IMG/VR virus record: IMGVR_UViG_3300031413_000001
Length of the DNA: 64,000 nt
From: a virus
Taxonomy: Duplodnaviria > Heunggongvirae > Uroviricota > Caudoviricetes
Direction: 5' to 3' (one strand)
Shown one piece after another: positions 1 through 41,372 of the stretch; position 1 is the stretch's first letter; every line of letters starts with the position of its first letter. The notes beneath the pieces are model-generated. The model saw only the letters and a list, made by a program, of their open reading frames with translations, searched no databases and was not told where the DNA came from. The position numbers and the translations under genes are program-made.

Positions 1-11
1 ATCGCCTATGC

Positions 12-197
12 GTGAGCAGTGCCCATATCATAAAGCCCAAGAGTATCGGCCTGGCGCCCTGGTACTTTTTAAGCGATGATGCCCTGTTGGTTCTTGGATC
101 GAGTGCATATCAACTCCGGTGCAGCTTCTATGATCATTGGCACTTGACCATTGATGATCGAAGCCGAGCGGCTCTTTTCAAGTTGAAGTTTCTATGA
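12..197 (+). CDS. FKLxW-family small protein (probably 5'-truncated by window edge)
   Basis: C-term IDDRSRAALFKLKFL matches family motif. Confidence 0.7.
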   Translation: MSSAHIIKPKSIGLAPWYFLSDDALLVLGSSAYQLRCSFYDHWHLTIDDRSRAALFKLKFL

Positions 198-218
198 CAG
201 TTTTTTACCGGTCATTGC

Positions 219-470
219 GTGATGATGCCTGTTCCTAATCCAGATAGCCAGGAACACCGCGGGACATGGCTTGACGAGATCTATGCCTGGCTTGCAACCA
301 TCGAGGGTGACTATGACCTAATGCTGGTCCGAACGGGTGCCATCTTGACTAAAGAGGATGTTCTCTCTGGCAGCAAGATGGGTCTTAGGACGATTGACGA
401 GCACATCATTTGGTTCTTTGCAGAAATGCGGGACGCCCAGCTGTTTAAGATGAGGTGGGCCAGTGAATAA
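219..470 (+). CDS. FKLxW-family small protein
   Basis: IYAWL helix; C-term FFAEMRDAQLFKMRW. Confidence 0.8.
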   Translation: MMMPVPNPDSQEHRGTWLDEIYAWLATIEGDYDLMLVRTGAILTKEDVLSGSKMGLRTIDEHIIWFFAEMRDAQLFKMRWASE

Positions 471-747
471 TCCCGGCGTCTTTGATGACGAAGACGAGAA
501 CGGATGGTCTTGCGCCAACATTGCCAACCAATGCGTGTGGTCCGTCGTGGATGAAAACGGCTTTCGTATCAAATCCCTGCATCTCAGGGAAGACGTCTTG
601 AGCTGGCTCATAGAACACGTTGGCCCCAAGAACACCATGAGGGAGATTGGAATGTGGAGAAACGACATTCCACTGCTGGTTACCGACACCAACTTCTACT
701 TCAAAGATCCCAACAAGGCACTCTTGTTCAAGTTGACTTGGGGCTAG
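463..747 (+). CDS. FKLxW-family small protein
   Basis: VLSWLIE; C-term FYFKDPNKALLFKLTWG. Confidence 0.85.
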   Translation: MNNPGVFDDEDENGWSCANIANQCVWSVVDENGFRIKSLHLREDVLSWLIEHVGPKNTMREIGMWRNDIPLLVTDTNFYFKDPNKALLFKLTWG

Positions 748-765
748 AGACTGCTAGGACGTGGC
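733..765 (+). promoter_or_regulatory. sigma70-type promoter, near-leaderless
   Basis: TTGACT(733)-N14-GCTAGG(753), ATG at 766; -35 lies in the Leu-Thr codons of upstream KLTW. Confidence 0.55.
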
Positions 766-1050
766 ATGGAATTTGAGGTCACAATCAACGTACCATACAG
801 CAATGACCGGGTGTGTCGGTACATTGAATGGAAAGAGTACCTGAGGACCAACCACAGCGCCACAAAGTTTCCCGATGGATATGAAATCCGCGATGAAGTG
901 TGGGACTGGTGCGAGGAAAACCTGCAGGGCTACTGGCGACAGTGGAACAACAATTTACCCAAGGGTGATCCAGCACGTGGTCGGATCATTGGCTTCTCGG
1001 ATGCCAACGCGGCCATGCTATTCAAGCTTCGCTGGTGTGGGAGCATCTAA
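766..1050 (+). CDS. FKLxW-family small protein
   Basis: VWDWCEE; C-term IGFSDANAAMLFKLRW. Confidence 0.85.
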   Translation: MEFEVTINVPYSNDRVCRYIEWKEYLRTNHSATKFPDGYEIRDEVWDWCEENLQGYWRQWNNNLPKGDPARGRIIGFSDANAAMLFKLRWCGSI

Positions 1051-1286
1051 TGCCCAACGCCTATATTCGCATGATCCAAGCCGACTATCCCCACGAGGTT
1101 GGTCTTCCAGAGTATGACATGACGCTTGAGGCAAGGGCGGATGCCTGGCTTCACATGAACGCCGTTGATTACATGGATTACTTTCAAGAAGTTGGCGACC
1201 TCAGGGTATATTGTTTCCGGGAGGCTTCATGGGCGACCATGTTCAAGTTGAGCTTTTATGGCCTGAACTCTTCGGAGAACCCGTGA
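1050..1286 (+). CDS. FKLxW-family small protein
   Basis: ATG overlaps upstream TAA, GGGAG SD; YCFREASWATMFKLSF. Confidence 0.8.
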   Translation: MPNAYIRMIQADYPHEVGLPEYDMTLEARADAWLHMNAVDYMDYFQEVGDLRVYCFREASWATMFKLSFYGLNSSENP

Positions 1287-1564
1287 ATTACGAGGTAGCA
1301 GTCCACTTTGCCAACAACGGTGTCTTTGGTCCCAAGCGACTCAAGACCCGTCTTCTAACCGAAAAAGTAGAACGGTGGCTAGACGCCCATGGTGGTGATT
1401 GGGGGCTGGTAAATTGGTATCGTCCCTATGTAGGTCATGGGGAATTTGGTCCCGAGCCGGGCATGGAGCACGTGGGGCGGATATTTCAGTTCGGAGAGCG
1501 CCGCACTGCCCAGTTGTTTCTTTTATGTTGGAATGCTTCAGGACACGCCAAAGAAGCTTCATAG
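1283..1564 (+). CDS. FKLxW-family small protein
   Basis: GTGA overlap start; VERWLD; FQFGERRTAQLFLLCW. Confidence 0.75.
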   Translation: MNYEVAVHFANNGVFGPKRLKTRLLTEKVERWLDAHGGDWGLVNWYRPYVGHGEFGPEPGMEHVGRIFQFGERRTAQLFLLCWNASGHAKEAS

Positions 1565-1810
1565 ATACCAATTTAAGTAAAACCGCTGTGCGGCACTGCG
1601 ATTTTGAAAATATACGCAGAAACGATCCTGCTGCACTATTAGAAGATAATCCCATCCACGAATGCCATAAGAGAGCAGCACCTCTGTCAGCTGATCTACC
1701 AATATGTCTCTTTGGGATAGGTTGTGGAAGAAGTGACCACGAAAGCTGTAGGGCAGTTCCATGTAGTGGCTGAAGTAGTATTCAAGCCTGCGGTCTAGAT
1801 ACTGAAACAT
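1559..1810 (-). CDS. FKLxW-family small protein (divergent)
   Basis: VYFQNRSAAQRFYLNW. Confidence 0.65.
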   Translation of the reverse strand: MFQYLDRRLEYYFSHYMELPYSFRGHFFHNLSQRDILVDQLTEVLLSYGIRGWDYLLIVQQDRFCVYFQNRSAAQRFYLNWYL

Positions 1811-2025
1811 AGTTTGAAATATACAGCCTTACTCAAGTCTGTAAACCACACTTCATAGATTCCAGTCTCAAAACTCTCACGACCAACAATCCAGTCCTCA
1901 TATTCCTGCCATTTTTGTTCCAAGAGCCAGAGGCGAACTTGGTAATGGTGCATGGAACTCTTGACCATAGGCAACTGCACCCTGATCGATCTGGTTTGCC
2001 GGGGATATTCAAAAAGGTCATCCAC
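1795..2025 (-). CDS. FKLxW-family small protein
   Basis: VRLWLLE; VWFTDLSKAVYFKLCF. Confidence 0.8.
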   Translation of the reverse strand: MDDLFEYPRQTRSIRVQLPMVKSSMHHYQVRLWLLEQKWQEYEDWIVGRESFETGIYEVWFTDLSKAVYFKLCFSI

Positions 2026-2085
2026 AGCCTATTTAATGGGTGGAAAATCTCCTTAAATATTCTGTACCCCAAAAGGAGATCGATC

Positions 2086-2526
2086 ATGACCCAGCTTACA
2101 CCGCATTTTAGTTTGGCCGAGATGACCGTTACCGGAACGGGTATCAAGAATGTTCCCAACGCCGCGCAGTTGGCAAACTTGACTCACACTGCTCAGATGA
2201 TGGAAAAGGTCCGTGCAATTCTTGGCACACCAATCAGCGTCAATAGTGGCTTCCGTTGTGATGCAGTAAACCGTGCCGTTGGTGGCGTGGTAACTTCCGC
2301 TCACAGCTTTGGCTTTGGTGTTGACTTCGTGAGCCCTGACTTTGGAACGCCCTATGAGGTTTGTGCCGCGCTGATCAAGGGTGGTCTAAAGTTCGACCAG
2401 CTCATTCACGAAAAGCGCCGTTGGGTCCACATTGGCTTTGGTCTCAAGGGAGGCATCAGCCACCGTCAGCAGGTCTTGACTCTTCCACCAGCAGGCGGCC
2501 GTTACCTGCCTGGTCTGGTCAAGTAA
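2086..2526 (+). CDS. Peptidase M15A-type endolysin
   Basis: LTPHFSLAEM, SGFRC..VN..VGG...SAH..G..VD, WVHIG zinc-peptidase motifs; AGGAG SD and TAAATA upstream. Confidence 0.9.
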   Translation: MTQLTPHFSLAEMTVTGTGIKNVPNAAQLANLTHTAQMMEKVRAILGTPISVNSGFRCDAVNRAVGGVVTSAHSFGFGVDFVSPDFGTPYEVCAALIKGGLKFDQLIHEKRRWVHIGFGLKGGISHRQQVLTLPPAGGRYLPGLVK

Positions 2527-2952
2527 TTACTTCGTAGTTTTTTCGGGAGGCTGAAGGGACCAAGTGCCCTTCAGCTTTCTACTCTTGGCCTTGACGAGCG
2601 TTCTCGTAATACCAAACGCCACTGGCGGAACCTCTGGCTTCTTTGCGCCACCCCATGCCAGCTTGAACATCGTGACATTCTTCATATCACGAAACCAGAT
2701 CTTAGCTTGCCTTCCAACCGCGAAGTCGCTGGCTTGTCCACACTTTTCCAGCTTGTAACGGCCTCCACTTTCCTGGAGCCAATCCCTTATGGGTTTTGCC
2801 CAGCGGTATTCCTCGAAGCCACCAGTCCATCGTGCGCTCGAGACATCACCCTGATTGAGCTTTCGCTGATAGAACTCTTCCAGCCATTCTCCCTGAACAC
2901 TGATATAGGGAAGTCCCAGCCATTTGCGCCACTTGACTTCTTCAATCAGCAT
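2527..2952 (-). CDS. FKLxW-family protein with C-terminal major-capsid-like peptide
   Basis: IWFRDMKNVTMFKLAWGG then VAFGITRTLVKAKSRKLKGTWS; GGAGG SD before ATG 2952. Confidence 0.8.
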   Translation of the reverse strand: MLIEEVKWRKWLGLPYISVQGEWLEEFYQRKLNQGDVSSARWTGGFEEYRWAKPIRDWLQESGGRYKLEKCGQASDFAVGRQAKIWFRDMKNVTMFKLAWGGAKKPEVPPVAFGITRTLVKAKSRKLKGTWSLQPPEKTTK

Positions 2953-3232
2953 TCTGTCCTCCAAAGGTCAGCTTGAACAACATGGCCAGGTTGTCGTTTT
3001 CTTTGATCAAAAAGAAAGCGCGAAAGCTGCTGGGGTTGACGTATGCGTCCCAAAGCACGTCTTCCATATAGATACGAGTAGCATCAAAGGCCACATCGCC
3101 ATGTTCGTTGGTACGGGGCTTGCTTTTCCATCCGGGCTCACCCAGACGCTCTGCGAGCCATCGGCCAGCGCGATCTATGCACTCGGCGTTGACTGGCACC
3201 TCAATGGTGTGAATGGTAGCTTCTAGATCCAT
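2942..3232 (-). CDS. FKLxW-family small protein
   Basis: ENDNLAMLFKLTFGG. Confidence 0.85.
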   Translation of the reverse strand: MDLEATIHTIEVPVNAECIDRAGRWLAERLGEPGWKSKPRTNEHGDVAFDATRIYMEDVLWDAYVNPSSFRAFFLIKENDNLAMLFKLTFGGQNAD

Positions 3233-3507
3233 GTCAGCTTGTATAGCACGGCAGCTTTGGAATCATAGAGTCGAATCATAAGCCTCCAGGAATAGACTTG
3301 TTCGCCATACTGACTGAGATCCGTGGAGGCATGAACAAACCTGCCATTGTAGGAGAAGTTGTGCTGGTCTAGCCAGTCCTTCATTTCCTGATCGAATAAA
3401 CGACTGGCATCATCCTCAGCCCGCCAACTGAGATCCCGATAGAGCTTTTTATTAGGAAGCGGAAAATCCCAATAGCTAGGCCCAGGTGAGTTTGAACAAC
3501 ATTGCAT
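3223..3507 (-). CDS. FKLxW-family small protein
   Basis: MKDWLDQ; LYDSKAAVLYKLTW; start uncertain. Confidence 0.75.
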   Translation of the reverse strand: MQCCSNSPGPSYWDFPLPNKKLYRDLSWRAEDDASRLFDQEMKDWLDQHNFSYNGRFVHASTDLSQYGEQVYSWRLMIRLYDSKAAVLYKLTWI

Positions 3508-3724
3508 CGGAAACTCTCTTAAAGTGAAATTCCAAACTTGTCATCCCATAATCTTCGAACATCCAACATTCGCCATGTTCCCAGTCCACACCCCATGCGC
3601 CAATGTTTTCTTGGATCCAGTCCCAGCACTCGTCCGAGAGACTGTCGTCGAAGCCGTGTTCATCTATAATGCAGACGCGGCTCTTGGGTATCACGACCCG
3701 AACGCCGTCAAGCCTCCTCGCCAT
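3476..3724 (-). CDS. FKLxW-family small protein
   Basis: CWDWIQE; FHFKRVSDAMLFKLTW. Confidence 0.85.
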   Translation of the reverse strand: MARRLDGVRVVIPKSRVCIIDEHGFDDSLSDECWDWIQENIGAWGVDWEHGECWMFEDYGMTSLEFHFKRVSDAMLFKLTWA

Positions 3725-4073
3725 CGCCCACCTGTGGAATTGCACTCGTGATCGTCAGTGGAATATAGGGGCAGTAAAAGGCCGTGATCTCCGGCATCAC
3801 TACTATCTGGATATCGGCGTGATCGTGCCAGGCTAACTTGAACAATTGAAAGACACTGGGGTCCTCAATCCAGATAGCCCTGCCTTTATCCATCCATGCC
3901 GTTCCCCATCGACCGGGACAGGTGTTGTCCATCCATTCGGCAAGAAAAGGTAAGATGCGGGGATTGGCACGAATATGCGTGGGCACTTCAGCATCAATGG
4001 CTTCCCAGGCAAAGAACATTTCTCCATCGCTGGGAACAATATACCACTGATGATGTTTCTCGATGAGTTTCAT
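3708..4073 (-). CDS. FKLxW-family protein with C-terminal major-capsid-like peptide
   Basis: WIEDPSVFQLFKLAW then AFYCPYIPL. Confidence 0.8.
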   Translation of the reverse strand: MKLIEKHHQWYIVPSDGEMFFAWEAIDAEVPTHIRANPRILPFLAEWMDNTCPGRWGTAWMDKGRAIWIEDPSVFQLFKLAWHDHADIQIVVMPEITAFYCPYIPLTITSAIPQVGDGEEA

Positions 4074-4510
4074 CAGCCGCACGCCAACTTAAACATCACC
4101 GCGTGTTCCTTGCTGTAGAAGGTCCACGTACACTCATAGACCGCAGAGGGAACAGGTTGAAGCTGTGGTATTGGATATCCATTACTGGAGTAATGTTGGG
4201 GCGAGTAATTGTTATAGTTGATTCCTGTTTGAAGACTTCCAACCAGATGAGCGTGTTCTCGAACCTGGGTGTTGTATTCCTCAATCTTCATGATATCCCT
4301 GAGATTATCCTGATATTCAGGCTCAACGGATCTCAGATGACGAAGGCAATCATTCTCGCCCATCCACCGAAATGCCGTGAGGAGTTTTTCCTCGCCGGGG
4401 ATCATAACATCAAAGATTGTGCCATCGTCATTCTGAAATGTGAAGCGGCTACGAGTTGCTGCTTTCAACGGACCAGAGAATTTAACGTCGAAGTGTTCCA
4501 GGATACGCAT
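4073..4510 (-). CDS. FKLxW-family protein
   Basis: WTFYSKEHAVMFKLACG. Confidence 0.8.
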   Translation of the reverse strand: MRILEHFDVKFSGPLKAATRSRFTFQNDDGTIFDVMIPGEEKLLTAFRWMGENDCLRHLRSVEPEYQDNLRDIMKIEEYNTQVREHAHLVGSLQTGINYNNYSPQHYSSNGYPIPQLQPVPSAVYECTWTFYSKEHAVMFKLACG

Positions 4511-4525
4511 TAACCCATTATGGGG

Positions 4526-4759
4526 TCAGCGGCCTCCAAAAGTCAATTTGAACAAGACAGCCGTGGCATTATCGGGAAGGTTGAACATCACCTGCCATCG
4601 ACTGTGATCGCGACCCAACATCCAGGTGACTTTGTCACTGACTGGCGGTGCGTTGTCGGCAAGCCAGTCCATGATGTCTGGATTGACGTGGACCTTCACC
4701 GATCCATTGCTTGAAGAATGGGCACAGGTCTTAAAGGGCAGAACGACGTTGACGCTCAT
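4526..4759 (-). CDS. FKLxW-family small protein
   Basis: IMDWLAD; DNATAVLFKLTFGG. Confidence 0.85.
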   Translation of the reverse strand: MSVNVVLPFKTCAHSSSNGSVKVHVNPDIMDWLADNAPPVSDKVTWMLGRDHSRWQVMFNLPDNATAVLFKLTFGGR

Positions 4760-5091
4760 GACCAAGTCAGCTTGAATAACATGGCGTGTTGCTTTTCCCG
4801 GAATACCAGTATCGCTCCAAGATCTGGACTATTGCCCACTTTATAGCCAGGAGCATATTGTTCCATCCAGGGATAAAGCTCACTGGCACGCCACTTGCTA
4901 TCAAAATGATCTCGGAAAAGCTGCTGGAGGTTTTCCTGTGGGCTGTTGCGGGCTTCCTGATCTTTTCGGGTAAGACGTTCCTCAGGGGTCTCGCGACCGC
5001 GCAGAACAAAGGAATTCTCAGGAATACACTTCTCGACGATTACTTTGAGTGGATTACCGCAATCCCAGACCATTTTATAGCTAGTCTGCAA
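4756..5091 (-). CDS. FKLxW-family protein
   Basis: LVFREKQHAMLFKLTWS. Confidence 0.85.
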   Translation of the reverse strand: MQTSYKMVWDCGNPLKVIVEKCIPENSFVLRGRETPEERLTRKDQEARNSPQENLQQLFRDHFDSKWRASELYPWMEQYAPGYKVGNSPDLGAILVFREKQHAMLFKLTWS

Positions 5092-5344
5092 TCAACTTGC
5101 TCCTGATCTCCGCAGTCCGCTGGGAGATAAGGTCGATCATCTTCATGGTGACCTGTACGTCGTTGTCCACCAGCCACCGGAGATCGTCCTCGTGGCTCTT
5201 TTCCAGATGACGGTGCATTGCTTCAATGCCTTCTGGCGGAGGACCCATTCGAGCGCAGACCTGATCGGCCAGCTGATGAAAGAGCTCCGCTCGCTTGATG
5301 ATCGAGACGTAAAAGAGATTTCGCATCACACGCTGGTCGGCCAC
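5081..5344 (-). CDS. hypothetical protein
   Basis: GTG start with GGAGG SD, coupled in array; lacks family motif. Confidence 0.6.
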   Translation of the reverse strand: MADQRVMRNLFYVSIIKRAELFHQLADQVCARMGPPPEGIEAMHRHLEKSHEDDLRWLVDNDVQVTMKMIDLISQRTAEIRSKLIAD

Positions 5345-5598
5345 TACAATCCTCCCCAAGTCAGTTTGAATAACATGACCTTATCCAGATCACAACCCTC
5401 TAGAAATGATATCATCACGCTATCTGTGCTGTCGTTGAATCCCCACACGGTGTTCATGGACACCACAGTTGCCAGCGGTTCGGCTGTGACATCATAGAGC
5501 TTTCGCTCCACTCCATCATCGTCCTTGACTAGCTTCCAGGGAAACCTATCTGTGGGTATGAAGATGGTTGTGATGATCACATTATCCCGAATAGTCAT
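5344..5598 (-). CDS. FKLxW-family small protein
   Basis: ATGA overlap; DLDKVMLFKLTWGG. Confidence 0.85.
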   Translation of the reverse strand: MTIRDNVIITTIFIPTDRFPWKLVKDDDGVERKLYDVTAEPLATVVSMNTVWGFNDSTDSVMISFLEGCDLDKVMLFKLTWGGL

Positions 5599-5882
5599 CG
5601 ACCACCCCATGCAAGTTTGAACATCATCGCCTTCGCGGGGTCTTTGAACTTGAAGTGAAGGAATTTTGCCGGACCGTTCTGGCGATCACCAGTTGCCAGA
5701 TACATGGGATCAATAGAACTCTCGCTGGCCCTCAGATAAAAGGCAGCTTTCCGGCTCCATGTATAATCCGTCATATCGCTGGCCTGTTGGCCTACATTCT
5801 GCACCAGCCAGTCGTGCATGACGAGGCGGAGGCCGTAGCCATCCCAAATCTCATCATTGACCTTGATGCAGATGTGCGTCAC
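5595..5882 (-). CDS. FKLxW-family small protein
   Basis: GTGA overlap; FKFKDPAKAMMFKLAWGG. Confidence 0.85.
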   Translation of the reverse strand: MTHICIKVNDEIWDGYGLRLVMHDWLVQNVGQQASDMTDYTWSRKAAFYLRASESSIDPMYLATGDRQNGPAKFLHFKFKDPAKAMMFKLAWGGR

Positions 5883-6160
5883 CGACCACCCCAAGAAAGT
5901 TTGCAGAGCATGGCATGACTGGGTCGATAGAAGAAGATAAAGAGACCCTTGTTATCCTCATCCTTGGTGGTGGTCCAAAGAATACCCAGCGGTCCGGCCG
6001 TGTCGTGTAGCCACTTTTGAAAGTCGGCGGTTGGATTGCGATGCCGTATGTAGCTGAATCCTTTGGACGTGGAAACATTCACACTCTCAAATGCCGGACT
6101 GTCATAGGATATGAATACCCTATGGCCCTGTTCAACAAGTGGATCCGCTAGACGTTTCAT
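5879..6160 (-). CDS. FKLxW-family small protein
   Basis: FFYRPSHAMLCKLSWGG. Confidence 0.85.
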   Translation of the reverse strand: MKRLADPLVEQGHRVFISYDSPAFESVNVSTSKGFSYIRHRNPTADFQKWLHDTAGPLGILWTTTKDEDNKGLFIFFYRPSHAMLCKLSWGGR

Positions 6161-6194
6161 AGAACCGTGTTAGCACCAGAACTTCCAGTGTCAA
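6161..6194 (-). promoter_or_regulatory. sigma70-type promoter, near-leaderless
   Basis: TTGACA-N14-GCTAAC-N8-ATG; no SD. Confidence 0.65.
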
Positions 6195-6195
6195 G

Positions 6196-6486
6196 CTATT
6201 TGAATGTGAGCTTGAACATCAGAGCGTGGTTTCTATCTTCAAAGCAATAGCAGATGTATTTGTTACTGGTCACCGCATTGTGGTACCAACTCCCCTCCTC
6301 GGGGGATTCTGGATCACGAAAATAGAAGCTGTTGTACTGGTCATCACCAACGTTGTTGGCAACCAGCCACTCATCAATGTCATCACGAAGAACCTGAGTG
6401 CTCTCACACCAGATGCTGCCAGGCAATTTCAGATATACGATGTGATAGTTGTCCTCGCCATTGGACTCTTCTGACAAATTGAACAT
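6196..6486 (-). CDS. FKLxW-family small protein
   Basis: IDEWLV; YCFEDRNHALMFKLTF. Confidence 0.85.
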   Translation of the reverse strand: MFNLSEESNGEDNYHIVYLKLPGSIWCESTQVLRDDIDEWLVANNVGDDQYNSFYFRDPESPEEGSWYHNAVTSNKYICYCFEDRNHALMFKLTFK

Positions 6487-6520
6487 CGCTCCTCCTACCT
6501 TTTGGGTAGCAGGAGTGCTT

Positions 6521-6814
6521 TCAAAAGTTCAATTTATAAAACCACAACAATTTGAACAACGCTGCTTCATTGCGATTACGAAACGCAAACGTGTAAGCGG
6601 TTGTTTTCCTTGGATACGTCTGGTATTTGTTCTTCTGATCCAAGAAGAAACCATCTTCATACTGGTGTACAAACCAATCAGTGGATTGGGGACCATCATC
6701 ATATAACCAATTGATGGAGTCAATCAGACGATCATATATGGGATCCTCGTGCCAGACACCAGGCACGGTCACGTGGTAGGGGAGAGCAGCCAATCGCTGC
6801 TGGGCATTCTTCAT
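6521..6814 (-). CDS. FKLxW-family small protein
   Basis: FAFRNRNEAALFKLLW. Confidence 0.85.
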   Translation of the reverse strand: MKNAQQRLAALPYHVTVPGVWHEDPIYDRLIDSINWLYDDGPQSTDWFVHQYEDGFFLDQKNKYQTYPRKTTAYTFAFRNRNEAALFKLLWFYKLNF

Positions 6815-7029
6815 CCCCATACCAACTTGAAGGCAACGGCCTTTCGAGCATCATCAAAGATAAACCGCCAACCTAATGGATCACCACCGGGCTTATCACA
6901 GATGATCTCCAGCGAGTAATCAAAATTCTTATTCCAGCTTTGATCAGTCAGCCACTGGAATAATTCAAAATCATTACCTTCGCGGGGGTAGATATCAACG
7001 ATCTTGCAGAATGGATACTCGGTACTCAC
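6811..7029 (-). CDS. FKLxW-family small protein
   Basis: FIFDDARKAVAFKLVWG. Confidence 0.85.
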   Translation of the reverse strand: MSTEYPFCKIVDIYPREGNDFELFQWLTDQSWNKNFDYSLEIICDKPGGDPLGWRFIFDDARKAVAFKLVWG

Positions 7030-7235
7030 ATGCCACCCAGTGTGAGTTTGACGATCAGGGCCTTGTTGGCATCGTGAAACCAGAAGCTAAGATAGTCCAG
7101 CTTTCCGCCGTGCATGTCAATCTGCCAGTCACGTTCCGCTTTGAGCTTGTTTTCATGCAGCCAGTCGATCGAATTGTCGCCATAGGGATCCTTGGCCCAG
7201 CTGATCTTTACCTCGTAGATGAATTGCTTTCTCAC
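7026..7235 (-). CDS. FKLxW-family small protein
   Basis: FWFHDANKALIVKLTLGG. Confidence 0.8.
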   Translation of the reverse strand: MRKQFIYEVKISWAKDPYGDNSIDWLHENKLKAERDWQIDMHGGKLDYLSFWFHDANKALIVKLTLGGM

Positions 7236-7477
7236 ACGCCGCTCCAGGCTAACTTGAACAGCATGGCTTTCTTGGGATCCGCGAAGCCAAAGTGAGCGCA
7301 GCCATCAATGCGGAGTATCCGCCAGGAACCTTTCCAGCCCCACTTGCTGCTGTAGATCATTTCCTTTCCCACGTGGGCTAACAACCAGGCTTTTACCTCG
7401 TCGCTGGCCCGCATAACAAAGGGTTCGTCGTTCCATGCCCAGATGTGGTCATCGGATTTAACAAAGGTATGACTCAC
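7232..7477 (-). CDS. FKLxW-family small protein
   Basis: GTGA overlap start; FGFADPKKAMLFKLAW. Confidence 0.85.
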   Translation of the reverse strand: MSHTFVKSDDHIWAWNDEPFVMRASDEVKAWLLAHVGKEMIYSSKWGWKGSWRILRIDGCAHFGFADPKKAMLFKLAWSGV

Positions 7478-7806
7478 CGTCCGCCCCACGTCATCTTGAA
7501 GCGGACGGCTTCGCTGGACAATTTGAACAAAAATATCAGACATGCAGAGTTATCATCTTTCCCCACTTGGGTAAAGGAGGTCAGCGATGCCGGTTCCCTC
7601 TTGACTGCGAAGCCCTGTTTGATATGGGCCCTGCACCAAGTTTCCAGAAACAACAGAACGGATGTGGACTTTAGATCGTCCAGAGGTGTGGCCATGTCCT
7701 CCCGTTCTTGATCGAACAGGTGAAACATGGTTCCCATCGTGATTGTAACAGGTGTCCAGCTTTCCAATTGCATCTCACGGTTGACCCTAGATAAGGCTTT
7801 GAACAT
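7474..7806 (-). CDS. FKLxW-family protein
   Basis: FLFKLSSEAVRFKMTWGG. Confidence 0.85.
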   Translation of the reverse strand: MFKALSRVNREMQLESWTPVTITMGTMFHLFDQEREDMATPLDDLKSTSVLLFLETWCRAHIKQGFAVKREPASLTSFTQVGKDDNSACLIFLFKLSSEAVRFKMTWGGR

Positions 7807-8290
7807 GAGTACCTCCGAAAGTCAACTTGAACAACATGGCGATCCTGGCATCCTTGAACTCAAACCCCGTGGCGTTGAGGACTCCAGTCTCGGTTATATA
7901 GGGACCATAGCTGTAATCACCGGAGTTTGCCAAGTCATGCTCCTTGAACCATTTGGCAATGTCGGTGTTAGCTAGAGTTCCTTCACTGTAACGGATTCCT
8001 CTGACGATCACCACATGCTTGTGGGAGGGATTCCAGTCCGTGAAGTGGTTTTTGAATTTGGTACCCAGGACTTCATCGTTCCAGTGGAACAACGACCAGT
8101 GACCATCAATCGAAGCCCAGAGACGAAGGGGGCGGGTTTCTAGGGCATGGCTGTCAACGACCTCCTGGTCCCTTGTTCCCGCCCAAGCGTCATGGTCGTC
8201 CAGCCACTGGTCAAGTTGCTTTCCCAGCTTGGCCGCGAAGTTACCATAATCGATAACACAATACTGACGAGTGGAGATACAGACTAGCAT
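7787..8290 (-). CDS. FKLxW-family protein, probably two tandem domains
   Basis: internal FHWNDEVLGTKFKNHF and terminal FEFKDARIAMLFKLTFGG. Confidence 0.8.
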   Translation of the reverse strand: MLVCISTRQYCVIDYGNFAAKLGKQLDQWLDDHDAWAGTRDQEVVDSHALETRPLRLWASIDGHWSLFHWNDEVLGTKFKNHFTDWNPSHKHVVIVRGIRYSEGTLANTDIAKWFKEHDLANSGDYSYGPYITETGVLNATGFEFKDARIAMLFKLTFGGTHVQSLI

Positions 8291-8550
8291 CAGCGCCAAC
8301 CTCCAAAGGTCAGCTTGAAGTGAAGGGCGGTACCACGATCGCGAAAGGCCCAGGCCATCGTGACCTTCTTGCTGTAACCGGGCTTGCCGGTCTGGTGCTC
8401 AAAGCAAACAAAGTCCTTTTGGTAGACTAGGTTGCTTTCCTTGATCCACGCAATCATTTCCTCGCTGCGGGCCAACTGACGATCAGTGGGCAGATCAGGC
8501 AGTTCCAGCGCGGTGGGAAATTGGCGGTACTTGCTGTCGATCTGTTTCAT
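8290..8550 (-). CDS. FKLxW-family small protein
   Basis: WAFRDRGTALHFKLTFGG. Confidence 0.85.
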   Translation of the reverse strand: MKQIDSKYRQFPTALELPDLPTDRQLARSEEMIAWIKESNLVYQKDFVCFEHQTGKPGYSKKVTMAWAFRDRGTALHFKLTFGGWR

Positions 8551-8584
8551 AGAACTGGCTTAGCACCGCTCTACTCTATGTCAA
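8551..8584 (-). promoter_or_regulatory. sigma70-type promoter, near-leaderless
   Basis: TTGACA-N14-GCTAAG-N8-ATG, same layout as 6161-6194. Confidence 0.65.
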
Positions 8585-8796
8585 CCAAATCGTAGCTTGA
8601 AGTGCATGGCGAGTTGTCGATGCTCGTCGCTGAAGCCAACGCTACGCTGGCCAAAGGTGGTGAAGACCTTTCGACTCTCTAGATTGTTCTTGAGGATCTG
8701 AGCCCACAGCCAGGAAAAGGCATCCGTGTAGTCGGTAATACAACATGCCAGTTCTACACGGTGCGGCCATTGCTGTTCAAAGGTGGGCTCTACCAA
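8581..8796 (-). CDS. FKLxW-family small protein
   Basis: VGFSDEHRQLAMHFKLRFG. Confidence 0.8.
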   Translation of the reverse strand: MVEPTFEQQWPHRVELACCITDYTDAFSWLWAQILKNNLESRKVFTTFGQRSVGFSDEHRQLAMHFKLRFG

Positions 8797-9050
8797 TCCT
8801 GATCTTCCCGTCGCTTGCCCAGATAGATATTGCAGTCCAGCAGATCATAGTGGCCGTCCACGTAGATCTTGTGCTCACCGGACTTGAACTCCCGGAGCCA
8901 GGAGTCGTCGGCATCCATAACGTACACGATGGAGCCATCATAACTGACAACAACCATCTTGGTAGCGCCGGTTGCTAGAAAGCTCAGCGTTACACGGAAG
9001 ATATGCGGTTCCTGGCTGAGCATCTTTACGGGACTTTCCACGCTTCTCAC
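8790..9050 (-). CDS. hypothetical protein
   Basis: ORF coupled to array; upstream TTGACA near 9090. Confidence 0.6.
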   Translation of the reverse strand: MRSVESPVKMLSQEPHIFRVTLSFLATGATKMVVVSYDGSIVYVMDADDSWLREFKSGEHKIYVDGHYDLLDCNIYLGKRREDQDW

Positions 9051-9080
9051 CTTATGATGTGAATAACAGTTTACGATGGA

Positions 9081-9350
9081 TTATTGAGTTGTCAAGTAGA
9101 GCAAACCAAAATGTCCGGCCAGATAGGTGAGGAATCCACCCCACCCGGCAATGAACAATAGGATGGCAACAAGAATGGTCTTTTCCTTGATGCTGATGCC
9201 CTTGGAGATCACATAGCTGTACGCTAGGATCAATGCCAAGATGGTGATCGCAGCCATGATAACGCTGACGCCAGAGAGGGCGAGGCCCAGGAGACCAAAG
9301 AACATAACACTTAGAATGTGCATAGGGTTGTATCCTTTCCTAGAATACAA
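9081..9350 (-). CDS. small membrane protein (2 TM)
   Basis: two long hydrophobic segments; probable start at MHIL (AAGG upstream). Confidence 0.6.
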   Translation of the reverse strand: MYSRKGYNPMHILSVMFFGLLGLALSGVSVIMAAITILALILAYSYVISKGISIKEKTILVAILLFIAGWGGFLTYLAGHFGLLYLTTQ

Positions 9351-9818: not shown

Positions 9819-11192
9819 ATGGCTAAAAAACCAACTCCGGAAAATCCCGGAACTTATCTTCCGATCCCTGGCCAAACGACCGCAACGCCCGATGAGGCAA
9901 ACGCGGCTAAGATTGCCGCCAGGAACACATCGGCCAGTGAAACGGCTGCGACCAGCAATGAGATCGTAGTCAATCCCAACGCCAACGATGGCAAACTCTT
10001 CATCTCTTCAAAACCCAAGGGCAACGAAACAACCGTTCCCGTGATCCAAACCAACCTCCCCGTTGAGGCTGGTGGTCAGGGACCCAAGGGTGATAAGGGA
10101 GACAAGGGTGATAAGGGCGATAACGGTCCTCCTGGCGAAGTAGACTATGACAAGCTCAGGGACTTGATCCAGTCAATGCTCGACGATATGCTGAACTTTA
10201 AGAGTTTGAAGTATGTCAATGGAACTCCCACGTCGGTATTCGGCACCAAGTCCATTACGTTGCAGGTTGAACTCGTCGACAGTGTGGCAAACACCAGCAC
10301 GATCGTTACTCCCATCTGGTCGATCGCCAGCGGTGCAGCAACCATCACGGCTAGTGGTGTCCTGACTGGTGCTGATGTGCAGATTGATACGCCGGTTACG
10401 GTTGTTGCCAACTACACGGACAGCAAGAACAAAAAGTACACGGCAAGCACCAACGTTACGATCAAGGCTCTGAAGCCTGCATCGTTGGCCGTAAGTGGCC
10501 CAACGGTCCTGACTGCCGGTGCGACTACCACTTATGTGGCAACTGTTTATTACACAGACGGCACCAGCAAGGTTGTTACTGCGCTGAGTGGTACGACTTG
10601 GACGCTGAGCAATGCTTCCATTGGTGTCCTGACTGGCAACAGCTTGAAGGTTGCAGCATCAACGACCAGCAACATCACGGGTATCGTGAAGGCAACATTC
10701 GTTGAAGGCACCACAACAGTAAGCGGACAGACGAATGTTTCCCTGGCTGCACCGGTAGCAGAGGGTATCAAGCCATTCTATGGCGTTGCCGTTCACCCCG
10801 TAGCAGGCACCACCACTGAACCCGGCACTTACACCAAGTGGAGCGAGTTCGTCAATGGTCTGGCTGGACGAGGAACGAATGCCTCCAAGGTCAACACTTT
10901 CTCAACCGTACAGGGCGTTGACCAGTATGGTTGGTACGCATACCCCAAGAGCTATGGTCTGATGCCAACGGCAAAGATCAAGGGCAACGGACAGCCTGGC
11001 CCAGGTGGTTGGGATTCCGCTCTTGCTCCAAACGGTAAGACTGGTGTTGCTTGGTACGGTGATTCCAGCGGCGAAGGTCCACTGGAAGTCAGCGTTACCG
11101 TCAATGGCGTCGCAACTCCCTTCTATCTCTACCGCACGGACAACAAGGTTGCCAGCGGTACGTTTGCTGAGACTTGGGTCGTCAGCGCATAA
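9819..11192 (+). CDS. virion fibre/decoration protein with short collagen stretch and Ig-like domains
   Basis: [14 protein letters not shown]; Thr/Ser-rich Ig-like repeats; TAAATA at 9786. Confidence 0.75.
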   Translation: MAKKPTPENPGTYLPIPGQTTATPDEANAAKIAARNTSASETAATSNEIVVNPNANDGKLFISSKPKGNETTVPVIQTNLPVEAGGQGPKGDKGDKGDKGDNGPPGEVDYDKLRDLIQSMLDDMLNFKSLKYVNGTPTSVFGTKSITLQVELVDSVANTSTIVTPIWSIASGAATITASGVLTGADVQIDTPVTVVANYTDSKNKKYTASTNVTIKALKPASLAVSGPTVLTAGATTTYVATVYYTDGTSKVVTALSGTTWTLSNASIGVLTGNSLKVAASTTSNITGIVKATFVEGTTTVSGQTNVSLAAPVAEGIKPFYGVAVHPVAGTTTEPGTYTKWSEFVNGLAGRGTNASKVNTFSTVQGVDQYGWYAYPKSYGLMPTAKIKGNGQPGPGGWDSALAPNGKTGVAWYGDSSGEGPLEVSVTVNGVATPFYLYRTDNKVASGTFAETWVVSA

Positions 11193-21998: not shown

Positions 21999-22340
21999 AT
22001 GAGTCGCTACAATTATTCAAAGATCCGCGGTGACATTCGCCCAGTCCGAGATCACATCCTTGTGATCAACATGGAAAAGGGTGAAAAGGTTACCAAGGGT
22101 GGTATTATCACGCTTGATGACAATGGCAAGGATCGGGGTATCCGTCCTCGCTGGGCACAGGTCTGGCGCGTTGGTCATGAGCAGACTGACATCAAGGTTG
22201 GACAGTGGGTTCTAGTGGAACATGGTCGTTGGACCTATGGCGTTGAAGCTGAGATTCCCGAGAGCGCCGATGAAGTACATTATGTTCAGCGCGTAGACGT
22301 AACTGGTGTATTGGGTGTTCAGGATGACTGCCCCTTCTAA
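21999..22340 (+). CDS. groES: GroES-like co-chaperonin
   Basis: IRPVRDHILV..EKVTKGGII..VG..IKVGQWVL. Confidence 0.85.
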   Translation: MSRYNYSKIRGDIRPVRDHILVINMEKGEKVTKGGIITLDDNGKDRGIRPRWAQVWRVGHEQTDIKVGQWVLVEHGRWTYGVEAEIPESADEVHYVQRVDVTGVLGVQDDCPF

Positions 22341-22350
22341 TCCACTTAAA

Positions 22351-22533
22351 ATGGTTGTCTGGATTCAAGACAACGATCATTTTCAAAACATGAATGATTT
22401 CATAGCATTCAACAGATCCAAAGTTGTCGATTATTCTTGGTATCACGGTTTCATAGGTGAGCCATCAAGTAGTTTGACAATTGAATTTGGCAATGTATCC
22501 GACGCTTTGCTGTTTAAGTTGAAGTACGGTTGA
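22351..22533 (+). CDS. FKLxW-family small protein
   Basis: IEFGNVSDALLFKLKYG. Confidence 0.75.
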   Translation: MVVWIQDNDHFQNMNDFIAFNRSKVVDYSWYHGFIGEPSSSLTIEFGNVSDALLFKLKYG

Positions 22534-22537
22534 AGTC

Positions 22538-22900
22538 ATGCAGGCAGAGCCCATCACACTGGATGGAACCTCAAGGGGTTCCATCCAAACCTTTTTCTAT
22601 CCCGTCTGTTATGTTCAGATCTTCCGCCCCTGTAGCTGGACAGATCTCCACGCCTTTATGGAAGAAGGCGATACATTCCGACAGGAGATGAGCAAGCGAG
22701 CCCACTGGCTTGACGAGCAAAAGATCCGACACCGTATGAAATATGATCGTGTGATTGACGATCCTGACCGTCCACACTATTATAGACTTTTCATAGAGTT
22801 CTCCACTATGGATGGAGCGGAGCAGTACATTGAACGGTGGACCGAGTGGGCAGCAGAATTAAGCACCAAGTTGCTCGATATGCTTGGGAAGTTGACGTAA
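22538..22900 (+). CDS. FKLxW-family protein (degenerate)
   Basis: HWLDEQ; IEFSTMDGAEQYIERW. Confidence 0.6.
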   Translation: MQAEPITLDGTSRGSIQTFFYPVCYVQIFRPCSWTDLHAFMEEGDTFRQEMSKRAHWLDEQKIRHRMKYDRVIDDPDRPHYYRLFIEFSTMDGAEQYIERWTEWAAELSTKLLDMLGKLT

Positions 22901-23187
22901 CGTTCATTCGAACCTACGAGCGCTATCCCCAGTCCCAGGGCAAGACCACTTCCACCAGCGTGACACTCAACGACATTCGAGACAAGCTGGTCCGAATGGG
23001 CGAGCACGAGAAGTGGCAAAACCGTGGCAAGGACTGGTGCGCCGAACATACAAAAGATCGGTGGACCTTTGGAGACTTCCGTGTCAAGGAAGATGGATCC
23101 GGAGATGTCCAGCGAGTAGAGACAAAGTTCACATTCAATGACCGACACGATGCAATCATGTTTCAGCTGGTCAAGGATCGACTATGA
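22837..23187 (+). CDS. FKLxW-family protein
   Basis: KDWCAE; FTFNDRHDAIMFQL; true start probably near 22890. Confidence 0.7.
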   Translation: MDRVGSRIKHQVARYAWEVDVTFIRTYERYPQSQGKTTSTSVTLNDIRDKLVRMGEHEKWQNRGKDWCAEHTKDRWTFGDFRVKEDGSGDVQRVETKFTFNDRHDAIMFQLVKDRL

Positions 23188-23504
23188 GCAATGAGCTCCG
23201 ATCCGAGTATGAGCACGGACAGATCTGGATAACACCAAGTGGTGAATATGCGGTCTTGATGTCTTACGATTTCCATGCACGAAGTACCTTTCTATCACGC
23301 GCTGACTATCTGTCCATGAAACTCCACGAAGATCTGTATGAGTGGCTTGATGCAATGGGACCCAAAGTTCCTCACATCACGAACCTCACCTGTGATATTC
23401 ATCCCTGGAGACACCGGCCCTTTATCCCAGGGTCGGAGGGACTTCATGCCTTCTTTTTCTATCGCCGGAGGAATGCCTCGTTGTTCAAGCTTCGCTGGAC
23501 TTGA
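23184..23504 (+). CDS. FKLxW-family protein
   Basis: LYEWLD; FFFYRRRNASLFKLRW. Confidence 0.85.
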   Translation: MSNELRSEYEHGQIWITPSGEYAVLMSYDFHARSTFLSRADYLSMKLHEDLYEWLDAMGPKVPHITNLTCDIHPWRHRPFIPGSEGLHAFFFYRRRNASLFKLRWT

Positions 23505-23534
23505 CAAACTGGTAGCCAGTGCTAATATTGGAGC
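23501..23534 (+). promoter_or_regulatory. sigma70-type promoter
   Basis: TTGACA-N14-GCTAAT-N8-ATG. Confidence 0.65.
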
Positions 23535-23966
23535 ATGAAGCACTACCGCCCCATAAAGACCTTTGCCACTTGGCTTCTTGAGCGCGTTTCAATCCACTTG
23601 CCTTTTGAGGGCGGACGTGATTGGGGCGGAAAAGATCACGAGCATTGGATCGAGGAGCATCTTGAATTAGATCGCCAGGTAACCGGTGATCTTCGAGCAA
23701 ACATCTACAGTCACAGTGGAAGCGGCTTTCCCATAGCTGGACGTCCCCACCTTCACTATTTCAATTTTCCAACCGCTGAGCAAGCGGATCTTTTTCAAGC
23801 CACATGGGGTGGAGTCCGAAGCACGGAGACTATGAAGGAAACAGCCCGGAGGAATGAATCCATCTGGGGCAACTTCACAGCCGATGATATGCTGCACCTC
23901 TATGGTGACCCACTTCCCAACATAATTCAGTACCATCTTTCCTACATGCAGGATCATGGCGGTTAA
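23535..23966 (+). CDS. FKLxW-family protein with C-terminal extension
   Basis: FNFPTAEQADLFQATWGG. Confidence 0.75.
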   Translation: MKHYRPIKTFATWLLERVSIHLPFEGGRDWGGKDHEHWIEEHLELDRQVTGDLRANIYSHSGSGFPIAGRPHLHYFNFPTAEQADLFQATWGGVRSTETMKETARRNESIWGNFTADDMLHLYGDPLPNIIQYHLSYMQDHGG

Positions 23967-23984
23967 AGTAACCGCTTCAGTCAC

Positions 23985-24374
23985 ATGCACCAACAGTGGG
24001 CGCATCTTGATTGGGTTCCGGGTGCGTTTCTTCACAGGGATCGCCAGTGCCAAGATGACGAGATAGAAGTGATCTGCTGGTTCGCAGATACTCTACAGCA
24101 TCAGGTTACCCCAGATGATGAGCATGGGTGGCAGCGTCGTTGGCATCAGTACGCCAGCAACGTCTATGAGTTCGACGATCCCTATGTTGCCAAAATGTTC
24201 ATGCTACGTTTTGGCTGCGATCCTATTCCCGAGAAGTACCGCTTTCGTGGAGACGAGATTGCGCGGAAGCTGGTACCCCATGTTTCGGGCATTCGTCACG
24301 CAACGGGCAAAGGGTACATTTGGGAGAGGACGGCCAGCATACCCGATTACCAAAGTCCACTAATAAGGGGTTGA
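23985..24374 (+). CDS. FKLxW-family protein with C-terminal extension
   Basis: YEFDDPYVAKMFMLRFG. Confidence 0.7.
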   Translation: MHQQWAHLDWVPGAFLHRDRQCQDDEIEVICWFADTLQHQVTPDDEHGWQRRWHQYASNVYEFDDPYVAKMFMLRFGCDPIPEKYRFRGDEIARKLVPHVSGIRHATGKGYIWERTASIPDYQSPLIRG

Positions 24375-24918
24375 ACCACTTCCAGTATTTGCGTGGAAGT
24401 TTTTCCCTCAGGACCTCTTCGGTTTCATTGGCGTCCTTGGTGTCCACGTAACCCCAGATATTCATGATACGATGAACGTGAGTGTCAACGGTCATGGTCG
24501 TTTGACCAAAGCCTGAATCCAAGGTCAGATTGGCGGTCTTTCGTCCCACGCCGGGAAGGCTCAAGAGGTCGTCCATGTTGTTGGGAACCTTGCCCCCAAA
24601 ACGATCGATAATCTGCTGGCTGGTTTGTTGCACGAACTGAACCCGTCGACTGGTGTGTCCAAGGGGCCGTAGAAGCCCAGAGAGCTCCTCTACGGGCATC
24701 TGGGCGATCTGCTGGGGCGTTGATGCTATTTCAAAGAGACTGTTCTCTACGCGCTCCACAGTTGCTCCACGAGCACGAAGACTGAGCAGTGTTCCTATCA
24801 GGGCACGAAAGGGTTCCTGTCGGTGGAAGCCCGTGTAAGCGTGACCAGTTTCCTTCTTCATGTACGCCTTCAGCGTATCAAGAGCCGCGGGCGCATCAAG
24901 CGTTTCGTTGGTAGACAT
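24223..24918 (-). CDS. nth: endonuclease III (HhH-GPD glycosylase)
   Basis: LLSLPGVGRKTAN, VDTHVHR, FeS motif C-x6-C-x2-C-x5-C. Confidence 0.93.
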   Translation of the reverse strand: MSTNETLDAPAALDTLKAYMKKETGHAYTGFHRQEPFRALIGTLLSLRARGATVERVENSLFEIASTPQQIAQMPVEELSGLLRPLGHTSRRVQFVQQTSQQIIDRFGGKVPNNMDDLLSLPGVGRKTANLTLDSGFGQTTMTVDTHVHRIMNIWGYVDTKDANETEEVLREKLPRKYWKWFNPLLVDFGNRVCWPSSPKCTLCPLRDECPKHGVPASAQSRLHESGTSRE

Positions 24919-31475: not shown

Positions 31476-31883
31476 TTAGAAAGTGGGCTTCATCGAGGAT
31501 TCGCTGACTTCCTTGAAGGTGCCCGGCTCCAGGATGTAATAGGCGTTGTAGCTGGGCTCCTCACAGTCTTTGTGAAAGACCAGCTTGCCGGAGACCATTG
31601 CGTCCGAGATTGCCTGGAACATCTTGTCCCCATAGCAACCCCAGATGGACGTCATCTGCGAGTAGCCCTCGTTCCCACAGCCATCGCCCTCGCGAGCATA
31701 GATCGTGAGTTCGCCATTGGGACCAACCTGCAAGGGTCCCTTCCAGTCCGGCTGGTACTGGCACTCATCGTGGTAGAGCTCACCGATCTCGGTTTCGTCC
31801 ATCAGCTTGGTGTTGAGCTGATCCAGATCCTTGATCGCGAGATCATCGACCTGATAGATCTCAAGATTAGTCCACAGTCCCAT
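31476..31883 (-). CDS. hypothetical protein
   Basis: AAGGAG SD. Confidence 0.7.
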   Translation of the reverse strand: MGLWTNLEIYQVDDLAIKDLDQLNTKLMDETEIGELYHDECQYQPDWKGPLQVGPNGELTIYAREGDGCGNEGYSQMTSIWGCYGDKMFQAISDAMVSGKLVFHKDCEEPSYNAYYILEPGTFKEVSESSMKPTF

Positions 31884-32172
31884 CTTCTTCTCCTTTATGA
31901 AATCTCAACTTGAACAGCATTGCTTTGTCGCGGGTCTCAAATTGGAACCCGCGCTTGTCCCCGCCCATGCTGAATGATTGCCAGTGAATCTTGGGCTCAC
32001 CCACACTTGTTTCCAACCAATCGTAGGCTTCCTGCGTGATAAAGCGGTGCCTTGCGTGGTGAAGGTATGAGGGAAGATTCTCATCCGTGGGATCAAAAGG
32101 ATCAAAGAGCTCGTCGGTTTCCTCTTTCGTCAAATAGACGACGTGGTCTCCATCTATCTCTTTGTACTCCAT
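31867..32172 (-). CDS. FKLxW-family protein
   Basis: AYDWLE; FQFETRDKAMLFKLRF. Confidence 0.85.
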   Translation of the reverse strand: MEYKEIDGDHVVYLTKEETDELFDPFDPTDENLPSYLHHARHRFITQEAYDWLETSVGEPKIHWQSFSMGGDKRGFQFETRDKAMLFKLRFHKGEEDGTVD

Positions 32173-32570: not shown

Positions 32571-32574
32571 GTAG

Positions 32575-32648
32575 TCGGGAATGTAGGATTCGAACCTACG
32601 ACCCCCTGCTCCCAAAGCAGGTGCGCTACCAGGCTGCGCTAATCCCCG
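32575..32648 (-). tRNA. tRNA-Pro(TGG)
   Basis: cloverleaf, GTTCGAATC T-loop, anticodon loop TTTGGGA; followed by CTA not CCA. Confidence 0.93.
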
Positions 32649-32694
32649 TTGCAGCTCTATTTATACGCAGAGCCAGTGCGTTTTTCAATAACTT

Positions 32695-33501: not shown

Positions 33502-33541
33502 GTCCTAGATCGATCTATAACATGACATTCTCCTCAAGCGT

Positions 33542-33618
33542 TGGTGCCCCGGAAGGGATTCGAACCCCTGACCGTCGGTTTAGGAAACCGCTACTCTATC
33601 CGGCTGAGCTACCGGGGC
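33542..33618 (-). tRNA. tRNA-Arg(CCT)
   Basis: cloverleaf, loop TTCCTAA, encoded CCA. Confidence 0.92.
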
Positions 33619-33623
33619 ATTTG

Positions 33624-33705
33624 TGCGCCTGGAGGGACTCGAACCCCCACACCTTGCGATACCAGGACCTAAACCTGGCGCGTCTACCAATTCCACCACA
33701 AGCGC
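33624..33705 (-). tRNA. tRNA-Leu(TAG)
   Basis: long variable arm, loop TTTAGGT; followed by CAA not CCA. Confidence 0.92.
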
Positions 33706-35258: not shown

Positions 35259-35288
35259 ATAGTCTGAGATTCCTTAATGATGAGAGAT

Positions 35289-35507
35289 ATGAGTAAAGAA
35301 GACACACTGAAGATGAAGGGTCTAGTAACCGAGATCCTTCCAAACGCTCTATTTCGTATCAGGCTCGAGAATGACGCAATGATTATTGGTCATATCTCGG
35401 GCAAGATGCGTAAGAACAACATCAAAGTTCTTGTCGGCGATGCCGTGGATTTGGAGATGACTCCATATGACCTGACCAAAGGTCGGATCACGTTCCGCTA
35501 CAAGTAA
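35289..35507 (+). CDS. infA: translation initiation factor IF-1
   Basis: [36 protein letters not shown], 72 aa. Confidence 0.96.
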
Positions 35508-36677: not shown

Positions 36678-36711
36678 TTTTATTACATGAATAGAACAAC
36701 GTCAACCGCTG

Positions 36712-41331: not shown

Positions 41332-41372
41332 GTGGGTTTGTTGCGCTCACCCACATGGAAAGTTCAATATTC

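Follow-up and report, generated by a model that had tools for sequence, protein, structure and literature searches.

A lineage-specific family of small paralogues on one predicted fold in Phosso-like jumbo phages, tentatively read as early protein binders

Introduction

What does a phage do with dozens of small proteins that share one end and differ almost everywhere else? The question is raised by a stretch of 64,000 nucleotides (the window) from a Caudoviricetes virus (IMG/VR record IMGVR_UViG_3300031413_000001), whose first 8.8 kb hold almost exclusively open reading frames (ORFs) of 70-170 residues with a related terminal motif. The window holds 44 members of the family, and the related genomes hold up to 107; the family is old and specialised, is gained and lost slowly, and is not a currently diversifying repertoire. 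Our preferred reading, to which we give a probability of roughly 45%, is that the members are early, non-virion, non-enzymatic protein binders that serve host takeover or counter-defence. Most jumbo-phage genes are unexplained small ORFs, and here a single domain covers about 100 of them per genome; giving it a name would annotate, in one step, a sizeable share of phage dark matter.

Membership and organisation of the family

A hidden Markov model (HMM) built from 297 members of more distant phages, which were chosen and aligned with window-derived profiles, matches 44 ORFs of the window at E<0.01 (28 of these fall in 1-8796) and 1 of 524 reversed ORFs used as a false-positive control. A second HMM, iterated within the window from a seed of 16 ORFs of the first 8.8 kb, recovers 43 members, 28 of them in 12-8796, each with leave-one-out support (E 1e-13 to 0.014). 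Model building and copy counting in the genome and its relatives, proposed as a check in a preliminary description of this DNA, confirm the family: both models return the 28 copies in 8.8 kb that had been claimed, and the five satellite clusters placed at 22351-24374, 31867-32172, 35508-37593, 40266-41678 and 60360-61054 are all real. The claimed total of about 46 stands as a large expansion and is lowered to 44, probably because ORFs 22538-22900 (E 0.73) and 36712-37104 (no match) find no support as members. The shared ending is likewise genuine, in forms looser than those first written: the full F-x-[DN]-x3-A-x2-FKL-x-[WF]-G occurs in 6 of the 44 members and the W[LC]xE helix motif in 12, while the shorter A-x2-FKL-x-[WF] is present in 27 members and in none of 246 non-member ORFs.

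The main array consists of two convergent arms (+ strand, 1-1564; - strand, 1559-8796), is interrupted by two non-members, an M15 peptidase gene and the unrelated ORF 5081-5359, and extends past the left window edge, where locus L001 supplies 11 further members. In the near-identical relative G002 (an IMG/VR genome of 417 kb, 90% complete, sharing half of the window's sampled 31-mers) the main array holds 53 members in 16.3 kb. The features are as follows, all members being assigned by profile match unless other evidence is given:

1-197 (+): member, truncated at the left edge of the window (its orthologue has 96 residues)
219-470 (+): member, E 4e-7
463-747 (+): member; its K-L-T codons hold the -35 box of the next promoter
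766-1050 (+): member, E 1e-18
1035-1286 (+): member
1211-1564 (+): member, last in the + arm
1559-1810 (-): divergent member, last in the - arm, E 0.0012
1795-2025 (-): member, with a late-type TAAATA ahead at 2030-2035
2086-2526 (+): non-member, peptidase M15, probable endolysin (PF08291, E 3e-17), late TAAATA at 2054
2527-2964 (-): member with C-terminal extension
2942-3232 (-): member
3223-3507 (-): member
3476-3745 (-): member, the modelled representative
3708-4082 (-): member with C-terminal extension
4073-4510 (-): member with long insertion
4526-4765 (-): member
4756-5091 (-): member
5081-5359 (-): non-member, conserved hypothetical gene within the array
5344-5610 (-): member
5595-5894 (-): member, orthologues in G003, G006 and G007 58-63% identical
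5879-6160 (-): member
6196-6486 (-): member
6521-6820 (-): member
6811-7029 (-): member; a 463,863-bp contig encodes an identical protein
7026-7235 (-): member
7232-7543 (-): member, probable start near 7477
7474-7806 (-): member
7787-8299 (-): long member, 170 residues
8290-8550 (-): member
8581-8796 (-): member, first in the - arm
22306-22533 (+): satellite member
22837-23187 (+): satellite member
23184-23504 (+): satellite member
23535-23966 (+): satellite member, first half of a split two-domain gene
23985-24374 (+): satellite member, remaining half of that two-domain gene
31867-32172 (-): satellite member
35508-35768 (-): satellite member
35765-36151 (-): satellite member
36136-36432 (-): satellite member; its orthologue in the 481-kb phage L002 is 58% identical
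36423-36677 (-): satellite member
37105-37593 (-): satellite member, C-terminal domain
40266-40742 (-): satellite member fused to a 45-residue fragment resembling the start of Gp23 (PF07068, E 2e-11)
40651-41331 (-): satellite member, domain N-terminal in a 226-residue protein
41373-41678 (-): satellite member
60315-60803 (+): satellite member, two hydrophobic segments before the domain, judged by sequence to be probably membrane-spanning
60803-61054 (+): satellite member

The domain thus occurs in several settings, including two-domain proteins, a probable membrane anchor (60315), the Gp23-like fusion (40266) and C-terminal positions on larger proteins. The fusion to the start of a major capsid protein is kept in the 481-kb relative (L002, 5502-6047), and is possibly a capsid-protein mimic or decoy. 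The two-domain member split by an in-frame TAA at 23964-23966 is a single 279-residue ORF in G002, and several neighbouring bases differ there, so that the split is not one point change. The in-array M15 peptidase, whose position is kept in L024-L029, comes with a divergent pair of TAAATA sites at 2035 and 2054. The array of relatives also holds inserted unrelated genes lacking a Pfam match (L029, 1151-2380, 409 residues; L024, 17064-17519, 151 residues) and therefore accepts foreign cargo.

A common fold without a characterised match

AlphaFold, run on member 3476-3745 with a 127-sequence alignment, predicts the order strand-helix-strand-strand-helix at a predicted local distance difference test (pLDDT) score of 83, and the same order recurs in domain 2 of a distant member with two domains, in a model that is weak overall (62). 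The family fold is accordingly given as a predicted, common beta-alpha-beta-beta-alpha arrangement of about 60 residues, resembling ACT, KH and RRM domains. The structural check proposed beforehand thus returned one secondary-structure order in two distant members, and the two models together with the conservation columns support one fold for the family, in which the C-terminal helix is constant and the surfaces diverge. Among the G002 paralogues, these columns are a Trp in helix 1 (96%), an aromatic residue in strand 2 and a Phe in strand 3, with A-M-L-F-K-L-x-W as the pattern of the last helix; the only polar ones are a Lys (88%) and an Asp (52%), the others being hydrophobic, and no catalytic-looking residue set is found among them. 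Domain charge ranges from -12 to +8 with a median net charge of -1, and, of 101 domains, 43 have an isoelectric point below 6 and 33 one above 8. A homodimer prediction scores 0.00, which speaks neither for nor against dimers.

No characterised domain was matched, such a match having been named in the preliminary description as a possible refutation: Pfam, PHROGs, NCBIfam, PADLOC and PDB sequences give no meaningful match (stray single weak matches were dismissed). Matches to solved structures are generic, to ACT, KH, RRM and other domains with Z 4-6 and Foldseek E>0.6, the best being the ACT domain of TyrA (5uyy; Z 6.1, root-mean-square deviation 3.0, 67 aligned residues), a KH domain (1j4w; Z 5.2) and an RRM (6exx; Z 5.0). 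These scores fit a common arrangement, and no function is derivable from the resemblance. The family is like ACT, type I KH and RRM domains in the order of its elements and in overall shape, but both models end in a helix and lack the fourth strand that RRM and ACT have after helix 2, no RRM or ACT profile matches in Pfam, NCBIfam or PDB sequences, and the KH hallmarks are absent, with no conserved GxxG column and one conserved helix, not two, between strands 1 and 2 in both models. The C-terminal extension of some longer members might supply the fourth strand that short members lack. The nearest predicted structures are BFVD proteins of uncultured freshwater phages, Atu_ph07 and BcepSauron (for example A0A6J5KTI1 and A0A2L0UZY0), the top matches having probabilities of 0.9-1.0 and template-modelling (TM) scores of 0.5-0.6; they probably belong to the same family and, all being unannotated, add range and no function. 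An ESM Atlas search by features returned unnamed viral clusters only.

Source phage and distribution among relatives

The window is part of a jumbo phage of about 464 kb and encodes a tail sheath protein, clamp loader, ClpA and NAD-dependent ligase besides tRNAs. By ligase and ClpA the closest named genome is Sinorhizobium phage Phosso (469 kb), which shares gene order around PhoH, ClpP and IF-1, with Atu_ph07 among the next; blastn of 1-8000 against named phages gives no match. The host is likely an alphaproteobacterium, since the relatives point that way and four of the five member-associated promoter-like sites have no T at -7, a trait of alphaproteobacterial promoters (PMC7703639); comparison of ClpA (~47% to various proteobacteria) assigns no host.

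Copy number, approximate because thresholds vary between searches, is lineage-specific. Phosso-like genomes carry 54-107 members (106-107 matches in G002; 80, 78, 84 and 54 in complete relatives; 56-63 in Phosso), and 2-5 are found in Atu_ph07 (5), PA5oct (3) and the 338-kb relative G013 (2). At the sensitivity of the profile, within which alone these zero counts are valid, no member is detected in RaK2, 121Q, XbC2, SCTP-2, XacN1, Xoo-sp13, RAS14, Lu11, Yoloswag or NCTB. Family ORFs total 38 kb in G002, an overestimate because each ORF was taken to begin at its first start codon, and in public data the profile matches at least 1,836 clusters at 50% identity. Searches of the literature turned up no account of either the family or Phosso.

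Tandem arrays holding dozens of diverged small paralogues, with a presumed role in handling the host, are familiar from the multigene families of poxviruses and African swine fever virus. Multigene expansions in jumbo phages are also already known: Bacillus phage G has a zinc-ribbon family of about 35 copies that was called unprecedented (Iyer et al. 2021, PMC7824862), in a review in which a keyword search finds no mention of the family described here. Both cases involve many copies of a small, function-unassigned domain within one jumbo-phage lineage, whereas the present domain is unrelated, has no metal ligands, reaches about three times the copies and spans a whole clade. What is new is thus an unnamed domain in a larger, clade-wide expansion; its fold is ordinary. 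The cultured relative Phosso, with about 60 copies and Sinorhizobium meliloti as host, makes the use of extra jumbo-phage DNA directly testable.

Ancient paralogues under purifying selection

Within genomes, the best paralogue identity has a median of about 30% and a maximum of 44%, and no recent near-identical duplicates occur in nine genomes or loci. All 44 window members nevertheless have a one-to-one orthologue in G002, assigned by reciprocal best hits instead of a tree because a domain of ~60 residues at 30% identity would not resolve. In pairwise comparisons, made with no site model, the ratio of nonsynonymous to synonymous substitution rates (dN/dS) between the window and G002 is 0.17 for members and 0.15 for 28 control genes, and it lies at 0.16-0.19 in three further relatives. 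The test by position that had been proposed gives 0.09 inside the motif and 0.19 outside it, both far below 1. The hypervariable body of the preliminary description is therefore variation between ancient paralogues: orthologues are conserved, with dN/dS of 0.16-0.19 outside the motif in four comparisons. Low paralogue identity, combined with one-to-one orthologues under purifying selection, is the basis on which we consider the family old and specialised.

Array gene content is nearly constant among five close relatives. In phages at ~80% clamp-loader identity, 10-21 of 53 main-array genes keep syntenic orthologues (25-63% identical), mostly in the arm covered by the window, and the outer arm turns over between genera. 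Synonymous divergence is patchy across family genes (dS 0 to 1.8); extra allele swapping in them was considered and rejected, patchiness being found in 9 of 44 family genes and 18 of 123 control 90-codon windows (p=0.35). A search for template repeats finds only degenerate repeats of 29-41 nucleotides at the motif, which are a plausible recombination substrate.

Promoters, coupling and the 3' gene end

Promoter and ribosome-binding signals were read as sequence pattern matches. The pattern TTGAC-N14-TGCTA has 6 sites in the window against 1.4 expected, five of them 8-9 nucleotides before a member ATG, so that the host's main sigma factor would produce leaderless messages there; similar sites precede members in four more relatives, and a generic scan for Escherichia coli promoters shows no enrichment. 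The putative sigma70-type promoters are the following:

733-757 (+): TTGAC-N14-TGCTAG, probably leaderless, before 766; also in G002, L028 and L029
4517-4546 (-): probably leaderless, before 4510; -35 in the K-L-T codons of 4526-4765
6170-6194 (-): probably leaderless, before 6160
8560-8584 (-): probably leaderless, before 8550; -35 shares bases with the stop codon of 8581-8796
9068-9095 (-): head of the - arm, before the non-member 8790-9050
23501-23525 (+): before 23535; -35 overlaps the upstream stop codon
32182-32206 (-): promoter of 31867-32172

Apparently leaderless genes at 42099, 766, 4510, 6160, 8550 and 32172, dnaJ among them, start 6-9 nucleotides after the -10 element, which is of note as the phage encodes IF-1. 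TAAATA sites lie 20-45 nucleotides ahead of structural genes, with a single window member having one; by analogy with T4 they would be late promoters.

The 3' end of the genes appears to signal at the DNA level as well. The motif Leu is encoded by TTG in 28 of 85 cases against 163 of 933 other family leucines (p=0.001), a bias to which shared ancestry could contribute. In G002, members with a Gly-Gly tail are start-coupled to the next gene in 17 of 19 cases, against 25 of 56 for the others (p=0.001); in five other phages the figures are 49 of 65 and 59 of 103 (p=0.02), these related genomes not being independent. The Gly-Gly test was chosen second, after a plain Gly-tail test that was not significant. 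The Gly-Gly that follows the Trp thus appears better explained as the ribosome-binding site of the next gene, and through this W-G-G coupling part of the constant end would be a DNA signal.

Candidate functions

On our preferred reading, an old multigene family built on one predicted ~60-residue beta-alpha-beta-beta-alpha scaffold, whose core the Trp helix and the A-x-x-F-K-L-x-W helix would form, has expanded to about 100 copies in Phosso-like jumbo phages. Several arrays would start at promoters of the host sigma70 type and be translationally coupled, so the proteins would be made early or in mid-infection and act outside the virion. The variable surface of each paralogue would bind its own fixed target, such as a host regulator, a defence protein or a metabolic enzyme, while the last helix, hydrophobic all round, and the missing fourth ferredoxin-like strand may expose a conserved partner patch. 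The 3' end, which in many cases appears to bear the ribosome-binding site, start overlap or -35 box of the gene that follows, would make the copies self-joining cassettes that recombination can gain or lose without breaking expression. A non-structural role is weakly suggested by proteomics: Atu_ph07 gp38, gp255 and gp258 (numbered from gene order) are absent from the virion proteome (PMC6102473, Table S5), and the three PA5oct members carry no mass-spectrometry (ESI-MS/MS) mark in their record. Of the diversified binder repertoire first proposed, divergent surfaces on a shared fold are retained, ongoing diversification is not, and the binder role is a best guess. Several points weigh on the other side. 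Binding and targets are deduced, and the timing comes from promoter patterns that stand directly upstream of a minority of members. Small proteins are readily missed by mass spectrometry. With dN/dS far below 1, no ongoing arms race is apparent, which weakens the counter-defence version; the fold is as close to the nucleic-acid binders KH and RRM as to ACT, and the Gly-Gly coupling signal is absent in Phosso, where such tails are rare. The fullest version, a library of about 100 binders in a phage clade of ~450 kb in which the last helix plugs into a shared machine, the surfaces capture different host proteins and the 3' end of each gene provides its neighbour's promoter and ribosome-binding signals, making the array a self-assembling cassette system, is doubtful.

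That every member docks through the last helix on a single common partner that is not Clp, bringing different clients, is unlikely, although the helix is hydrophobic at 6 of 8 positions with a near-invariant Lys and Leu, a hydrophobicity that by helical periodicity would exceed what a one-face core needs, its motif codons are the most constrained and two-domain members are common. That partner could be the transcription machinery of host or phage, a scaffold of the phage or the members themselves; core packing explains the conserved hydrophobics equally well, and copy numbers from 2 to 107 imply no fixed stoichiometry. The partner named in the preliminary description, the phage's own ClpAP protease or DnaJ with the members as substrate adaptors, found no positive support, and we regard it as improbable. 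ClpA is encoded in every complete genome with members, ClpA, ClpP and DnaJ lie near satellite clusters in the window, and 52 proteins with a DnaJ domain form an ESM Atlas cluster that matches the model at TM 0.69. The proximity is unremarkable because members are scattered genome-wide, and ClpA is clade-wide, being present in RaK2, 121Q, XbC2 and SCTP-2, which have no detectable member. Moreover, ClpA, ClpS and DnaJ are single-copy while the family varies from 0 to 107 (2 in G013 against 107 in G002), the phage DnaJ is of ordinary length, and no longer fused homologue was found, which is a weak test. ClpS adaptors (PF02617) are, like the family, small alpha/beta proteins in ClpA-encoding phages, but none of 127 members matches PF02617, and these phages encode a real, separate ClpS elsewhere in their genomes; that the ClpS fold is not among the structural matches listed says little either way.

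A set of RNA- or DNA-binding regulators with sequence specificity, built on a KH/RRM-like scaffold and each controlling different transcripts, would agree with the many KH and RRM entries of the structural search, with the conserved Lys and sheet aromatics, and with the DNA-binding role proposed for the zinc ribbons of phage G (PMC7824862). Every one of these structural matches is weak (Foldseek E>0.6, Z no higher than 6.1), however; the GxxG loop and the second helix between strands 1 and 2 are missing, and the slightly negative median charge with 43 of 101 domains acidic argues against a uniform role of this kind, which we consider rather unlikely. Least probable is that the members are mostly functionless filler or selfish cassettes, spread by 3'-end recombination and kept open for coupled translation or genome length. 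The cassette-like ends, a copy number from 0 to 107, the turnover of the outer arm and the window gene split by a stop would fit; amino-acid constraint over the whole protein equals that of ordinary genes, so that dN/dS largely refutes the idea, orthologues persist in order across genera, and young duplicates are missing from the nine genomes or loci. Early protein binders hence remain the reading that we prefer.

Other genes of the window

The regions 34207-35507 and 42099-45437 encode the phage ClpP, a NUDIX hydrolase, the translation factor IF-1, DnaJ and ClpA; in G002, ClpS and a second, shorter Clp ATPase lie at other genome sites. A DNA repair set comprises an HhH-GPD glycosylase (24223-24918, -), the UV endonuclease UvdE (59351-60391, +) and the NAD-dependent ligase (56505-58514, +). 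Two conserved proteins of 270-300 residues (37684-38574, -; 46906-47727, -) show nucleotidyltransferase-like D-x-D motifs on visual inspection and match no Pfam family. Three tRNA genes (Pro TGG, Arg CCT, Leu TAG) occupy 32574-33705 (-). Lastly, collagen-like Gly-X-Y repeat proteins, probably fibres, stand behind putative late promoters at 9819-11192 and 48288-51590, and genes 48288 and 51601 contain segments that are strongly diverged from G002.

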